DNA of 19,877 nucleotides from NCBI GenBank assembly GCA_031372065.1, contig JANMKN010000108.1:1-19877 (forward strand). Direction: 5' to 3'. Position 1 is the stretch's first letter. Each line of letters opens with the position of its first letter. The notes below the pieces were generated by a model. It worked only from the letters and a program-made list of their open reading frames with translations. It made no database searches and was not told the DNA's origin. This document shows positions 1-18,487 of the stretch, in pieces. The position numbers and the translations under genes were made by a program. This DNA is from Abditibacteriaceae bacterium (GTDB taxonomy: Bacteria > Armatimonadota > Abditibacteriia > Abditibacteriales > Abditibacteriaceae).

Positions 1-1887
1 AACCCAGAATGCCTTGCGACGCCAGTTTCTATAATCCCAGACATCAGCAGGGTCTTGGCCTTCGTCTCCTGCTTCGATTTTCGCTATCAGCGCTAAACGC
101 TCGCTTTCGTGTGCCGCCGTGCGCTGGGCTGCCATTTGCTGTTTTTGCGCCTCAATCGCTGCGAGTTTCGCGTTATACGCTGCCACCTCATTCTGTCTGT
201 GCAATTCGTCGGCAATTTCACCGGCGCGCGGATTGACTACAGTCACGTTCCACGTCCGTGGTGGCGTAAATTCCGGCACTGTCTCGTTTATGCGCCCTTC
301 GAGCCTCGCAGCTTCAACGCCTTCCATGCAAGCCTTTAATTCAGCATCAAACGAATGATAAACCTTTTCGGGATGCTGTGCCGTTTTATTGGCCGCTAAC
401 GGCTCTGCACGGCGCGTTTTTTCGATAGGTTGAAATTGGAACTGCCAAGTGAATAAAAGCGCGTGTATGGCCTGTAAATGACCTTGTGTTGCCGTGTATT
501 GGGCAGACCACGCATTGTGAAGCGCCGCTGAGAAATAACGGCCTTCTGTGCGCGGCGTGCCAGATGAAAAACACTCTCCATACTCGTTGAATGTGTGAAC
601 GCCGCCATATTGAATTAGGCGCTTGATAACGCCGCCTGTAAGGTCTTGGATTGCCGAAAATGTGATATAGCTGCTGCTTAATTCATCTTCAACAACGACA
701 CGGTTTGAGTGATCACTATCAGGCGTGCCACCAAACAAATAAACCCGAATCGCCTCAAAATACTCCGCTTGCGTGAATTGAGGATTATTCATCATATACG
801 ACGCCAGCGTAGTGCTACCGCAAGCAATGGCAACGAAATTCAGAAAATAAACCACTTCCTGAATGATTTCTACAACTTGACGAGTAGGGCAATATGTGTA
901 GCTTATTGGCGGTTCGTTTTGAAATTGTCCCTGCGGAAACGTCTGTTCTTCCGAAAATCCAGCAACTTCGATTTGATGTAACAGAAATCCGACTTTCATC
1001 ACGCATTGCCACCAAACGCGATAAATTTCCTTTAAGGCATACTGCCGATAAATGTTCATTCGCCGCTTTTGCGCAGCATCTATTGCGAGGTTCGGAATCC
1101 GAGTAGTGAGCGCCGTGTTTTGCTCCTCTATGCTGCCGTCAGGGTATGCCACCCATCCTGAGTGTGTATATTGCATCGTTTCTAACGTCGCTTGAAACCA
1201 CGCGAAACGAGTTAAAACAGCGCTGCCGAAATCTGTTAATTTGATTGCGCCGTTTTTCTCGAAATAATAATCATCTTCTCCTAAGACACCTTTAAACCAT
1301 TGCTTCCGCATACGACCTTTAACAGTTTCGCGCGCCACGTCCAAAACTATAAAAGCGTCTTTTATATAACCGTCTGGATTGCGCGCTGTAAGGTCATACG
1401 AGCGAAAACCCGTTTCGTTAGTAAAATCGTATGGGATGCCATAAAAACCTTGAATTGGCCGCGTTGGTTGTGGAATTAGCGGGCTATTCCGCGTGCTAAG
1501 AATAGCGTCATCGTTGACAATTTCAGGATGCGTATAATAGGGCGTCAAAACAACGCACGGCGTTGATTTTAATATGCCGTGTGCCTGTTCTACCAACCAC
1601 ACCACAACGAAGTGGATATAGCTATTCACATACAAAAGCGCCTCAGCATACGCCAGACGGTTCGCCGTGTCTACCATCGCCTCTGTGGTCGCTGGAATCG
1701 AAAACAAATGGTCATTGTAATTCAACTCAAAAACAGAGACATAACCATTATCATCCGGCAAATGCTCTGCCTGATAGCCTTTAAACCTGTCTCTGTAAGT
1801 GTGGGTTATCGGCGTATGATACACGCGAAACAGATATTGCGCTGTGGCAGTTGTAATGGTTGCAGGGTTTCCTGATGTTGTAGGCAT
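1..1887 (-). CDS. Large hypothetical protein, >=629 aa, 3' end outside window; N-terminal region paralogous to the 279-aa neighbour; possible minor virion protein
   Basis: Manual translation from ATG at 1887 (MPTTSGNPATITTATAQYLFRVYHTP...) stays open with no stop to position 1 (...WDYRNWRRKAFWV). It is absent from the ORF track because no stop lies inside the window. The function is inference. Confidence 0.9.
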   Translation of the reverse strand, partial: MPTTSGNPATITTATAQYLFRVYHTPITHTYRDRFKGYQAEHLPDDNGYVSVFELNYNDHLFSIPATTEAMVDTANRLAYAEALLYVNSYIHFVVVWLVEQAHGILKSTPCVVLTPYYTHPEIVNDDAILSTRNSPLIPQPTRPIQGFYGIPYDFTNETGFRSYDLTARNPDGYIKDAFIVLDVARETVKGRMRKQWFKGVLGEDDYYFEKNGAIKLTDFGSAVLTRFAWFQATLETMQYTHSGWVAYPDGSIEEQNTALTTRIPNLAIDAAQKRRMNIYRQYALKEIYRVWWQCVMKVGFLLHQIEVAGFSEEQTFPQGQFQNEPPISYTYCPTRQVVEIIQEVVYFLNFVAIACGSTTLASYMMNNPQFTQAEYFEAIRVYLFGGTPDSDHSNRVVVEDELSSSYITFSAIQDLTGGVIKRLIQYGGVHTFNEYGECFSSGTPRTEGRYFSAALHNAWSAQYTATQGHLQAIHALLFTWQFQFQPIEKTRRAEPLAANKTAQHPEKVYHSFDAELKACMEGVEAARLEGRINETVPEFTPPRTWNVTVVNPRAGEIADELHRQNEVAAYNAKLAAIEAQKQQMAAQRTAAHESERLALIAKIEAGDEGQDPADVWDYRNWRRKAFWV

Positions 1888-1918
1888 GGCGTTGGACTCT
1901 CGCAGGATAGACAATTTA

Positions 1919-1951
1919 AAATAGCCCGAAACGCAATGTTTCGGGCTATTT
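1919..1951 (-). terminator. Intrinsic terminator-like hairpin downstream of the 279-aa gene
   Basis: Perfect 14-bp inverted repeat aaatagcccgaaac / gtttcgggctattt with a 5-nt loop. On the minus strand the stem ends in TATTTT, 24 nt after the stop codon. Confidence 0.8.
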
Positions 1952-1974
1952 GCTTTAACAGTAACGTTACGGGT

Positions 1975-2814
1975 TTATGCACCCGGTAACATGGGGAACG
2001 ACGGCGGGCGCACTAAAATACGCTCCGCAGCCTGCAACGCGTTGTAAGTGTCCCAAGCTGCGGAAACGATAGCCGCAATTGCTGCCAACACATTCGCAGG
2101 ATGGTTGCCTTGCGTGTAACGATTCCACATACGCCACGCCTGACGCGCCCACTCATTCAACTGACGTTGCACGCCTTCTGCAATTTGGTTCATCGGAGAA
2201 GTGCGGGTTTTCGTGGCTTTGATGATGCGAAAATCTTGCGCGGCGATGGTTTCCACCACGCGCTCAGTCACAAAGCCATTGACAGAAAGCGGAGGCAACT
2301 TCATTACAAAGTTGTTATCGTTAAACGCCTTTGCGATGTTCTCTGTTAGAGAATCACCAGCGCCATACTGTCCAACTGGCGACACGCTGAAACGGGGCGG
2401 AATCGTTCCAGCGTTCAAGTAATCGGCGTATTCTTGCGCGCTCAACACATGGCGAAGATACGTTATGCCGGGTTTGCCCAACTGCGCGGCTTTTTCGATT
2501 GCTAAACAAACCTGTTCAGCAGTTGAACCATCTCCGACATCATAAGCGGCGTTGCCGGTTTCTGAGAGAGGCACGGAAAACGAGCTATAGCGCACTGAGC
2601 GGCTATTCGCGTCCAATTCTGTGAATGTGGCGCGCAAGAAATTCGTGGTCTGAAACGTCACCACGGCTAAGGCAGCCGCCAAGTCAAGCCCTAACTGTTT
2701 GGCAGCGGCGCGAGTAAAAGCGCCTTCCGGCGCCACCCGAAACACTACGCTGTGAGTGTCGCGAGAACCGCGCCCACCCTGAGACATTGCGAGTTTAAGT
2801 CTGTAATCTGGCAT
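1975..2814 (-). CDS. Hypothetical protein, 279 aa; candidate major structural (capsid-like) protein of the element
   Basis: Long clean ORF with Ala/Gly/Thr-rich soluble composition, followed by a terminator hairpin. It shares ordered motifs with the downstream ORF. The structural role is inference only. Confidence 0.85.
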   Translation of the reverse strand: MPDYRLKLAMSQGGRGSRDTHSVVFRVAPEGAFTRAAAKQLGLDLAAALAVVTFQTTNFLRATFTELDANSRSVRYSSFSVPLSETGNAAYDVGDGSTAEQVCLAIEKAAQLGKPGITYLRHVLSAQEYADYLNAGTIPPRFSVSPVGQYGAGDSLTENIAKAFNDNNFVMKLPPLSVNGFVTERVVETIAAQDFRIIKATKTRTSPMNQIAEGVQRQLNEWARQAWRMWNRYTQGNHPANVLAAIAAIVSAAWDTYNALQAAERILVRPPSFPMLPGA

Positions 2815-2982
2815 GATGAAAAAATAAACCGTCCTTCTGAAAATTTTTACGCCAAAATCTCAAGTAACGATTTCTCGAAATTTCTTTGCGTAACCTTGTG
2901 ATTTGCCGCCGCGCAGTTCCTCGGAAAATCGTTTTTCTCTGCGTCGTTGGTAGCAACAAACAATGATTTTTAATGAAAAATT

Positions 2983-3324
2983 CTATTGTTCGCCGCGTAA
3001 CAAGTAGGGATTAGAAACCAGTTTGAAACTCCACTTTGTTTCAGGCGTAAGCCCGAAAATCAGCTATTCCAAAATCGATCCTAATACCGCGCCTTCTGGT
3101 AACGTTACTGCCTTGCTGCGATGAACGTCGCCTGCAAGCGCTGAGTTTTTAGACCAAATGACGTAGTAATGAGAATTTTCTACAGAGTGAGGAAATCTCA
3201 CCGTTACGGTTGTCGCGTCCGGTGTCCACGTCACGCTATTTGAATCAACTAAAACGTCTTTGTCGAACGCGTCTGTAGGCTGTTCTAACGTTGCTAATTC
3301 AAAGAAGCGTGAGCGTTTGATCAT
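2983..3324 (-). pseudogene. Ig/FN3-like small protein interrupted by an in-frame TAG at 3064-3066 (86 aa to the first stop, 113 aa if read through)
   Basis: After TAG the frame continues LIFGLTPETKWSFKLVSNPYLLRGEQ* to TAG at 2983-2985. This matches the FN3-like GLxPxTxYxFxV pattern and the C-terminus of the upstream paralogue. Confidence 0.7.
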
Positions 3325-3374
3325 TGAAAATTGTTAGCGCGCTGTAGGCTTTTTAATGCCCACATACGCGTGTG

Positions 3375-3698
3375 CTATGCAGTCCAATCGTAATCAGCTG
3401 CGACGACGCGAAAACGATAAACATACCCTGCGTTAAAGTGGTTAGAAACGACGTGCCATTTTATGACAGGGTATCCATCGTAGGTCACATGGTCAACATC
3501 AGACGCGAGGAACGGGCCGTGCGTAGCAATAACGTTGTCGTTTACATCGCCAACTTCAAAACCGAAATGCGTCATTGCGTCATCGTAGACAAATGATGCG
3601 CGAAATGTGTCTTGCAGTGCTTCCATGTCCACGTCGCCCAAATCCGAACCCTCCTCCTCAAACGTTTGCATCTCAAAAAAACTTGAGCGTTTCAGCAT
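3375..3698 (-). CDS. Small acidic beta-rich protein, 107 aa, Ig/FN3-like C-terminus
   Basis: Strong SD (AAGGAGG) upstream of ATG. C-terminal AGYVYRFRVVA resembles FN3 terminal strands. The N-terminus MLKRSSFFEMQTFE is shared with the next gene. Confidence 0.85.
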   Translation of the reverse strand: MLKRSSFFEMQTFEEEGSDLGDVDMEALQDTFRASFVYDDAMTHFGFEVGDVNDNVIATHGPFLASDVDHVTYDGYPVIKWHVVSNHFNAGYVYRFRVVAADYDWTA

Positions 3699-3772
3699 TC
3701 TTTCAAACCTCCTTTTTTCAGCTTGCGCGCGTGTTTGGAGTGAGTTGGTGACATCAAACCAATGTGCGGGCG

Positions 3773-3800
3773 CTTCTCATCAATAGGCGTTTTAGCCGAA
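3773..3800 (-). other. Second, degenerate dif-like site in inverted orientation
   Basis: The minus strand reads ttcggctaaaa-cgccta-ttgatgagaag. It has the same central hexamer and flanking aa/ttg as the 3800-3827 site, giving an 11-bp perfect inverted repeat at 3781-3791 / 3809-3819. Confidence 0.5.
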
Positions 3801-3827
3801 CCTGACATAACGCCTATTGTGTCAGGT
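3800..3827 (+). other. dif-like XerC/XerD recombination site (candidate chromosomal dif or att junction)
   Basis: acctgacataa-cgccta-ttgtgtcaggt has two near-palindromic 11-bp arms around a 6-bp spacer. The inner cataa / ttgtgt matches the dif consensus inner cataa-N6-ttatgt. Confidence 0.75.
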
Positions 3828-3881
3828 CAATGATCAAAACAATCTTTAGGAATTTAAATTAAATAATGTATTCCTATAAAA

Positions 3882-3946
3882 TATTTTTATGTATTATTAA
3901 AATTAGAGATTTTTAAAATCATTTGAAATAATAATACATAAAAATA
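3882..3946. repeat. 18-bp perfect inverted repeat in a very AT-rich spacer
   Basis: tatttttatgtattatta (3882-3899) / taataatacataaaaata (3929-3946), enclosing the palindrome gatttt-t-aaaatc (3908-3920). Confidence 0.8.
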
Positions 3947-4011
3947 CGATATATGCTTCTTAATTCATATGTTCCGTTTACAGATATATAGTAGGATTGA
4001 GAAGAATGAGA

Positions 4012-5706
4012 ATGAGCAAGAACCTCTTTTTAGTCAACTACGAAAACCCTGAACTCCGAATAGCAGAAGTCCGCAATAGTCGGCTACACGATTTAGATGT
4101 GGAACGATTTGCTGGTGATCTTGGCAGTATTTATATGGCTGCCATTTCAAATGTTCTTTCTGGTATGGAGGCCACTTTTGTGGATATCGGGCAGAAGAAG
4201 AACGGCTTGTTGCATTTCAGAGATATTCACTGGTTTCCCACAGACCAATCTCGGTCCAAAGCTAACGTTAAAATTGAGAACCTCAAAGTTAATCAGCCTT
4301 TAATGGTTCAGATTGCACGGCCCGGTGTTGGAAACAAGGGCCCGCGACTGACAACGCGCATCTCATTGCCGGGACGTTTTATTGTCTTGGTTTTTCCGTC
4401 GGAGTCTGTTGGTGTTTCGCGCAAAATTGAGTCGGAAGCCGAACGCCATCGTCTTCGCCATCTTATCGAAAAAATTCGCCCTTTCGATTGCGGGTTAATT
4501 GTTCGCACTGAGGCTGAGGGTATTTCGTCAGAGGCTATCGAAAATGATCTCCAAAATCTTCTTGCACAGTTGCAGAATTTGAAGGTTCTATCTAAAACCG
4601 TTACACCTCCGAGCTGTTTACATAAGGATTTGGGTATTTTGGGTAAATTAGTTCGTGATCGCTTGTCCTTGGATACAGAGGCTATTTATATTGATGATGA
4701 AACACAGTTCCAATTTTGCTCCGAAATGATGAAGAATTTCATTCCTGAATTATTGCCGCGTTTACAACTTTATTCCGAAAAAAGGCCCATTTTTGAGAGT
4801 TTTAATGTTAATAAAGATTACCAGAAAATTTTTAGTGATACAGTGACTCTTCCCCACGGTGGCTCGTTGATAATCGAGGAAACCGAGGCCTTAACTGTAA
4901 TTGACGTTAATACCAGTCGCTTTACAGGTAAAGACCGGGTCGCAGAGACCATTTTGCAAACAAACTTGGAGGCCGTGGTAGAGGCTTCCACGCAAATTCG
5001 ACTTAGGAATATTGGTGGTGTAATCGTCATTGATTTTATTGATATGGAAAGGACTAAGGATCGCGTTCAGGTATTAGATGCTTTAGAGGCTACCTTAAAA
5101 TTGGATAGAGTTAAGACGCATATCGTTCAACTCTCGCCATCAGGCTTGGTGGAAATCACCCGCCGCCGTGAAGGGTTAACGCTGGAGCGTTCAATGTATG
5201 AGCTATGCTCTACTTGCAGTGGTTCAGGTAGGTTAAAGACTGCCGAAACAGTTTCAATAGACATTCGGCGGCGTCTTCGTGCTTTGATTAAAGCACCAGA
5301 GCAAACAATTTCAATTCTTACGCATCCAGAAGTCGCTGCTTCATTACTTGGTTATCAAACCGAATTTATATCGCAACTGGAAAATGAGACTTCAGGCCGA
5401 TTCGTGGTGAGGGTGGACGAAACCATGCACCGGGAGAGCGTCCTAATTGATTCATTCGCGCCAGATGCCCCTTTTGATGAGAATGTGATAGAACGCTGCA
5501 CTATAGGCACACACGATCAGCTTTATCCACCCCACGCGCCAGAATATGCGGTATGGCAGAATCTCTTAGTAAAATTGCCCAACATATTTCCTATTTCAGA
5601 AGGAGCTTCCCATGCCAATGAAATAGTTGTGTTAGAAATTATTCATATTGGCCGATGGTTTGCGACGGCCCGAATTGTGCGAGGTCTAACGAATCCGCAA
5701 AATTAA
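4012..5706 (+). CDS. rng: Ribonuclease G/E family (Rne/Rng) with probable C-terminal TRAM-like extension
   Basis: S1 region (GMEATFVDIG...GLLH), KGPRLTTRISLPGRF, catalytic IDVNTS and IDFIDM motifs, Zn-link CSTCSGSG. Start placed at ATG 4012 (MSKNLFLV); the ORF track starts at TTG 3997. Confidence 0.93.
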   Translation: MSKNLFLVNYENPELRIAEVRNSRLHDLDVERFAGDLGSIYMAAISNVLSGMEATFVDIGQKKNGLLHFRDIHWFPTDQSRSKANVKIENLKVNQPLMVQIARPGVGNKGPRLTTRISLPGRFIVLVFPSESVGVSRKIESEAERHRLRHLIEKIRPFDCGLIVRTEAEGISSEAIENDLQNLLAQLQNLKVLSKTVTPPSCLHKDLGILGKLVRDRLSLDTEAIYIDDETQFQFCSEMMKNFIPELLPRLQLYSEKRPIFESFNVNKDYQKIFSDTVTLPHGGSLIIEETEALTVIDVNTSRFTGKDRVAETILQTNLEAVVEASTQIRLRNIGGVIVIDFIDMERTKDRVQVLDALEATLKLDRVKTHIVQLSPSGLVEITRRREGLTLERSMYELCSTCSGSGRLKTAETVSIDIRRRLRALIKAPEQTISILTHPEVAASLLGYQTEFISQLENETSGRFVVRVDETMHRESVLIDSFAPDAPFDENVIERCTIGTHDQLYPPHAPEYAVWQNLLVKLPNIFPISEGASHANEIVVLEIIHIGRWFATARIVRGLTNPQN

Positions 5707-18428: not shown

Positions 18429-18487
18429 AAAGTTAAGAGTTTTGAGTTGCAATAGAATATCCGGAACAACTCAAAACTCTTAACTTT
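18429..18487 (+). repeat. 21-bp perfect inverted repeat between livK and livH
   Basis: aaagttaagagttttgagttg (18429-18449) / caactcaaaactcttaacttt (18467-18487). Confidence 0.9.

Follow-up and report, generated by a model that had tools for sequence, protein, structure and literature searches.

The closest described counterparts of the element considered here are small phages that enter the chromosome at dif, and they differ in how the attachment site of the phage is built. In Vibrio cholerae, TLCphi has a single attP in which one arm and the centre match dif while the XerD arm diverges (PMC5357621, PMC4246890), the key positions of the latter being T1 and G5 (PMC9226527). The enterobacterial gokushovirus prophages, such as EC6098, integrate and excise, and lysogens and empty sites coexist; EC6098 is a small circle that lacks an integrase and is bordered by two dif motifs in which the phage XerD arm varies, and gokushovirus dif motifs occasionally lie within the N-terminus of VP4 (PMC7062461). 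The inovirus XacF1 of Xanthomonas citri has its attP in a coding region, that of the putative regulator ORF12, which is split at dif integration, and its integration and excision are dynamic (PMC5666396). CTXphi is organised differently: its two full sites are separated by 90 bp, and their centres, of 12 bp and 5–7 bp, make recombination of the duplex impossible (PMC4246890, PMC5357621). In the XerS/difSL and XerH/difH systems, the recombinase gene lies beside its site (PMC5357621). These statements, and the comparisons that draw on them, follow portions of the cited papers.

The locus studied here belongs to a member of the Abditibacteriaceae and was analysed as one stretch of 19,877 nucleotides (the window). 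We consider it probable that the window contains the right junction of a rolling-circle element of about 6.7 kb, likely viral, which has a single attP inside its replication initiator gene (rep) and was integrated as double-stranded DNA at a probable dif site by a host tyrosine recombinase, while a hairpin beside the junction is probably a by-product. The relevant features of the window are:

Positions 1 to 1914, minus strand: the 5' 638 codons of a protein of about 780 aa, cut by the contig end and 47% identical to an ORF of the related circle L055.
Positions 1975 to 2814, minus strand: a 279-aa hallmark protein of a 171-cluster family, a candidate major capsid or structural protein.
Positions 3064 to 3324, minus strand: a small ORF of 86 aa from the first Met, homologous to the second 111-aa ORF of L055 (43% identity; E value 6.5e-22).
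Positions 3375 to 3698, minus strand: a 107-aa ORF, the first gene downstream of rep in the circle and in the same position as a 111-aa ORF of L055.
Positions 3692 to 3816, minus strand: the severed 3' end of rep, its last 38 codons counted from a Met at 3808, with a stop that overlaps the start of the 107-aa ORF.
Positions 3781 to 3791, plus strand: an inverted copy of 3809–3819, made of rep-tail codons and matching over 11 bp in attR and 9 bp in attP.
Positions 3800 to 3827, plus strand: attR, the regenerated probable dif site, with the left arm of the element (3800–3810), the hexamer CGCCTA (3811–3816) and the right arm of the host (3817–3827).
Positions 3997 to 5706, plus strand: the host RNase E/G gene of the right flank (Pfam RNase_E_G, E value 1.6e-91), syntenic in G002, a genome of the same genus.

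The element resembles TLCphi in that its attP is a single site of which one arm is good, the centre equals that of dif and the other arm, though degenerate, keeps T1 and G5; like TLCphi, it has no integrase of its own. It differs in that attP lies within rep, in having candidate structural genes of its own, and in its host recombinases, which the cut-off of the XerD model does not class as canonical XerC/XerD. With EC6098 it shares the small circle lacking an integrase, the two flanking dif motifs and the variable phage XerD arm; unlike the gokushoviruses, it has no Microviridae capsid match, its initiator is Rep_trans-like, its site lies in the 3' end of rep, and its host belongs to another phylum. 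As in XacF1, a coding-region attP is split, but the gene concerned is the replication initiator instead of a putative regulator, and no Zot/pI-like gene was found among the element ORFs. RstA of CTX is a Rep_trans-type initiator, and the element is like CTXphi in its initiator type and in having the central region repeated in inverted orientation near attP, but it has one site with a 6-bp centre plus a 9-bp stem without arms. In contrast to VGJ-type phages, its hexamer is identical in attL, attR and attB, without a centre mismatch next to the XerD arm. Finally, as in XerS/difSL and XerH/difH, the gene for a 306-aa tyrosine recombinase in G002 stops some 40 bp short of the site; this protein, however, scores better on XerC/XerD models than on XerS, and usually there are two paralogs.

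The original prediction placed a dif-type site at 3800–3827, bordering an integrated element, and this is confirmed by the opposite junction and by empty sites. attL was located at C215:2097-2124, where the left arm known from G002 is followed by the same hexamer and a different right arm. In G002, an empty site occupies the syntenic place before RNase E/G; it has the same hexamer and right arm as attR, from which it differs by two left-arm bases. A second empty site was found in run X1, in which a 49-nt contig joins the host flank of C215 to positions 3799–3836 with two differences, at a depth of 2.5 as against 4.0 for the attR contig. As the original prediction expected, both empty sites lack the inverted 11-mer. 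X1 may be the source sample, and its empty site therefore shows coexistence, not independent recurrence; it may derive from an uninfected strain rather than from excision. No circular or attP joint was present among the contigs of runs X1–X3, a search confined to contigs that does not establish absence.

Contig C307, which encodes a recombinase 92% identical to that of G002, overlaps C215 by 141 nt and restores the gene order of G002, whose upstream DNA maps to C227 and C307. The order is thus recombinase gene, Tn3 and IS remnant, attL, element, attR and RNase E/G. Within the element an assembly gap of about 0.75 kb, as estimated from L055, remains, so that the link between C215 and C126 rests on homology and not on one contig. 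A chance match of C215 inside an IS701-like remnant was considered at one stage, and was overturned by G002 and run X1. That remnant, between the recombinase gene and attL, contains a complete Tn3-family transposase and a resolvase (L048:2140-6141). On the other side, between the site and RNase E/G, positions 3875–3953 hold an AT-rich 25-bp inverted repeat (88%), and G002 is also AT-rich there.

As reconstructed from the junctions, attP is one 11-6-11 site with the host hexamer, one strong arm and one degenerate arm (left arm 15.5 bits, hexamer 6/6, right arm 1.0 bit, the host right arm scoring 17.5). It lies within rep. The Rep of C215 runs into attL, and in a virtual circle it continues in frame with window positions 3808–3692 to give a Rep of 344 aa, the lengths of homologs being 345, 345 and 338 aa. 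The same Rep tail is found in P0009, and the Rep of L055 matches window positions 3814–3701 at 66%. L055 also keeps 20 of the 22 arm bases of attP, its left arm being identical, and in both G000 (the host genome) and L055 the degenerate arm has T1 and G5; synonymous identity in these arms adds only modest information, since 101 of the 166 conserved rep codons are the same in any case. The Rep proteins of L053 and L054 have an unrelated tail, and the attP-bearing tail therefore looks like a branch-specific gain. The sequence P0010 terminates at the same junction point, which suggests a second prophage on its contig of 82.5 kb; judging by length, that contig apparently bears P0004 and P0014 too. 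As to its family, the C215 Rep matches PF02486 (Rep_trans; E value 4.7e-5) at a score under the Pfam gathering score, PF02486 is present in three of four close homologs, and there is a weak resemblance to an inovirus Rep.

The inverted repeat at attR is real and uncommon. As originally claimed, 3781–3791 are the perfect reverse complement of 3809–3819. The 55-mer at 3773–3827 folds as DNA with −9.9 kcal/mol (z −4.1; equalled by none of 200 shuffles) and its minus strand with −10.3 kcal/mol (equalled by 2/200), and this fold and the arm hairpin of 3800–3827 are indeed competing structures, with a pair probability of about 0.63 on the plus strand. Among 200,000 random 200-nt genome flanks, a perfect inverted copy centred on the hexamer occurs in 0.012% for a length of at least 11 bp and in 0.11% for at least 9 bp; any 9-mer of attP is found in 0.6% of 50,000 random flanks. 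The 19.9-kb window as a whole has four perfect hairpins of at least 11 bp and nine of at least 9 bp (loops up to 30). Two further inverted repeats were seen elsewhere in the window: a perfect hairpin at 1919–1951, between the genes of the 279-aa and 780-aa proteins, is probably a terminator, and a perfect 21-bp inverted repeat at 18429–18487 is flanked by two ABC-transporter genes.

The further step of the original prediction was that 3773–3800 forms a second, head-to-head dif-like site onto which a single-stranded genome folds with a short loop, giving an 11-6-11 substrate as in CTXphi and making integration irreversible. The arms of this supposed site score −12.4 and −7.2 bits, which 24% and 8% of genome 11-mers equal or exceed, whereas those of the real site reach 15.5 and 17.5 bits. 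The weight matrix was built from 26 arms of 13 sites in relatives, leaving out those of G000 and G002, and its scores are partly circular because the source pattern was built on the window's own site. The rebuilt attP fails to fold as an 11-6-11 duplex, with 2 of 11 pairs in the outer arm and 5 of 10 in the inner; the two sites overlap by one base (3800), and between the arms there is essentially no loop. The stem of attP has 9 bp, not 11, because the pairs 3781–3782/3818–3819 need host-arm bases that differ in attP. The inverted copy is also missing from L055, the sole attP-bearing homolog examined, the three other relatives having no clear site. The hexamer of L055, CTCCTG, differs from that of G000 at two of six bases and has no stem across it; four of its six in-register pairs are kept, one by a compensatory change, and the mismatches adjoin the strong arm at two positions.

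Integration through such a folded single strand, with the hairpin as recombinase substrate, is in our judgement very improbable. It would agree with the arm orientation, which is that of a folded site, with a 9-bp stem that covers the whole hexamer, with the Rep_trans-like initiator and with the four pairs and compensatory change of L055. Against it are the mostly unpaired arms, the background-level scores of the copy, the one-base overlap, in place of the two full sites that CTX keeps 90 bp apart (PMC4246890, in the part consulted), and, in L055, the stemless hexamer mismatched beside the strong arm. Moreover, a canonical 6-bp centre, identical to that of the host, is already present in the duplex attP, which therefore does not need folding, unlike attP1 of CTX. 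Judged by its sequence, 3781–3791 is not a recombinase site, and irreversible integration is not supported. A single-stranded phase, also part of the original prediction, is made plausible by the Rep_trans-like initiator of the element; the hairpin adds nothing to the case.

A regulatory hairpin peculiar to this element, for instance masking attP in a single-stranded phase, aiding the origin or adjusting how rep is coupled to the next gene, appears improbable as well, although stem pair probabilities are 0.55–1.0 on both strands of the virtual attP, such a hairpin is rare by chance, and the coupled start codon of the next gene lies only 75 nt further on. The hairpin is missing from L055, and the Pro and Ser codons shared with it are explained by coding constraints. 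The bases that lengthen the stem in G000 lie inside a two-codon insertion without counterpart in L055, and they match the host arm. Local template switching is a source of inverted repeats of this kind, and the hairpin may have been born in this lineage by such a switch or by chance. A switch would have occurred in the prophage, which fits the comparison of the two sequences, a comparison that does not give the direction of change. The hairpin next to attR is, then, probably a by-product and not a recombination substrate.

The site at attR is the best two-arm match in G000 (33.0 bits, the next scoring 21.7), and related sites occur in 12 of the 24 family genomes searched. Its probable identity with dif, the chromosome-resolution site of the host, is supported by the polarity of KOPS octamers in two relatives, counted in 20 sampled 15-kb stretches per genome with the motif of E. 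coli and a far boundary chosen after viewing. In G004, the octamers number 22 on the plus and 3 on the minus strand in six stretches left of the site and 4 and 17 in seven stretches right of it, seven distant stretches being mixed (15/12). In G009, the counts are 8 and 0 in nine stretches and 4 and 15 in eleven, with the switch at the site. Both genomes belong to genus g2, in which the site adjoins a paralog of the recombinase, and the count for G000 itself gave only three octamers. GC skew located no termini.

As to the enzyme, none of five genomes has a protein above the curated cut-off of the XerD model, although only 4 of 14 controls pass it; the best score in G000 (C68) is 208 bits, compared with 329.6. 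The 306-aa recombinase is present in 19 of the 31 genomes of the class, often with a paralog, and is conserved in all 16 other genomes of genera g1 and g2; in G009 and G016, a paralog adjoins the site. These data make the lineage-specific tyrosine recombinase a candidate for a non-canonical Xer system. The target might instead be the cognate site of an adjacent recombinase of mobile type and not a chromosome-dimer dif. This reading draws on the lack of a protein above the XerD cut-off in 5/5 genomes and on the occurrence in G012, G021, G022 and G023 of several paralogs per genome whose sites are perfect palindromes; it is unlikely in view of the single best site in G000, the flip of KOPS polarity at the family site in both near-complete relatives, and the retention of the recombinase in 16/16 other genomes of g1 and g2. 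We retain dif as the probable target.

Several observations concern the surroundings of these genes. Among the recombinase loci (G000:C307:6785-7702, G002:C6:15068-15988 and L057-L086), one paralog is linked to RNase E/G in several genomes. Near-perfect palindromic 11-6-11 sites occur at L076, L077, L078, L082, L084, L045 and L046 (G012, G021-G024), several of them located 14–166 bp beyond a recombinase paralog, and the hexamers of three such sites in G021 differ; such pairs of palindromic site and paralog would possibly be single-recombinase mobile modules. In G000, two weaker dif-like sites (15.5 and 16.7 bits) bracket a 212-aa ORF in the manner of a pdif module (G000:C116:238-972), and a dif-like site of 21.7 bits follows a 150-aa ORF (C151:3322).

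The gene content of the element is best read from its relatives. L055 is a complete circle of 6705 bp with homologs, in the same order, of six element proteins whose genes are here divided between C215 and C126. Among other relatives, L054 and L052 are circles of greater divergence and L053 is a fragment; site scores in L052 and L053 are within those of shuffled controls, and the best site of L054 (10.6 bits, 5-bp spacer) is ambiguous. L052 (G042:C44) is a circular contig of 5984 bp, binned with a genome of genus g2, that has the gene order of the element, a divergent Rep and no dif-like site. The intergenic regions L048:470-780 and L055:4090-4314 contain conserved hairpins and, upstream of a 103-aa gene, share about 20 nt of sequence; these are a candidate promoter or replication origin. 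The ~780-aa protein has five homologs of 740–790 aa, and C215 encodes two small basic ORFs. The 107-aa ORF has no Pfam or PHROG match and no tblastn match to L055 at an E value of 0.01. No minus-strand sigma-70-like promoter was found at positions 1850–4050, which is weak evidence.

The 279-aa family comprises 171 clusters at 50% identity. The predicted structure of the protein (pLDDT 96.6) matches 13 unnamed viral-protein models at E values of at most 0.001 (best E value 3.3e-8 and TM 0.51, both from the first model). These BFVD entries may come from known unclassified circular genomes. Genomes of that description have been reported, in the part of the source consulted (PMC7000223). No PDB match was obtained by Foldseek at E values of at most 0.001 or by sequence search, the best VIA hit (Z 7.5) covers the C-terminal helices only, ESM Atlas gave no usable match, and INPHARED has no match for the family. 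Searches of Pfam, PHROGs, NCBIfam and PDB returned no capsid match, and the 279-aa protein has no profile or fold match to a Microviridae capsid. No match to a Zot/pI-like ATPase or a small pVIII coat gene was found among the element ORFs scanned (at least 70 aa), and the complete circle L055 has, besides Rep, no ORF of Zot/pI size.

An unclassified rolling-circle element of about 6.7 kb that is likely viral accounts best for these results, and its gene content makes a virion and a single-stranded genome plausible. That it is an integrative rolling-circle plasmid or satellite without a virion of its own, using the same att mechanism, seems rather doubtful. The missing capsid match, the lack of an IMG/VR relative by the patterns used and the isolated copies of the 279-aa gene in G018 and G021 would agree with a plasmid or satellite, but the 279-aa fold matches 13 viral-protein models, three complete circles of 6.0–6.7 kb have a common gene order, L055 and L052 contain an ORF that is amidase-like by eye, and no mobilisation gene was seen.

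With a single protein as query, two of the 31 class genomes yielded Rep, and with an alignment as query 1 of 401 phylum genomes did; the 279-aa family was found in 4 of 401 phylum genomes. Isolated chromosomal genes of this family (G018:C92:16001-16690, G021:C11:94947-95558 and G021:C13:29349-29960) are accompanied by no other element genes or dif junctions; the two copies of G021 lie in similar islands near a tyrosine recombinase. IMG/VR yielded no relative of the element with three alignments, and a GTDB scan with the large ORF found nothing. The attP pattern matched once in L127, a 207-kb contig of which 221 nt were viewed, and this match was treated as chance.

Taken as the likely viral element described above, the replicon would integrate as follows. 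The replicative double-stranded circle would recombine with dif through its single attP, as in TLC-type and gokushovirus elements, the exchange being catalysed by a host tyrosine recombinase. Because both junctions keep the same 6-bp centre, the reaction should be reversible. Since attP lies inside rep, integration swaps the tail of Rep and cuts rep from the four genes downstream: the last 38 residues of the integrated Rep would be replaced by 7 host-encoded ones, and the four genes, the first of which is probably translationally coupled to rep, would lose the rep transcript. Integration would in this way act as a switch. More tentatively, and with somewhat less than even confidence, we propose that unclassified small circular, probably ssDNA phages with a capsid of unsolved fold infect Abditibacteriota, and that one branch, having acquired a rep tail that contains attP, exploits a dif recombinase specific to the lineage, its integration being a shut-down by clipping of Rep and uncoupling of the structural operon.

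In the portions of the literature searched, we found no paper on phages of the Abditibacteriaceae lineage, nor any describing a rolling-circle rep whose 3' end contains a dif-type attP. The present results remove a supposed second case of integration by folded single-stranded DNA. They assign a host family, the Abditibacteriaceae, and a life cycle to a family of small circular elements that otherwise appeared in this analysis only as metagenomic contigs, and the recombinase adjoining the site provides a non-canonical dif system that can be tested. Should the 279-aa protein be the capsid, its virion fold would be one without a solved relative. The lasting value lies in the element itself, an unclassified small circular and likely viral IMEX of the Abditibacteriaceae with its attP inside rep.
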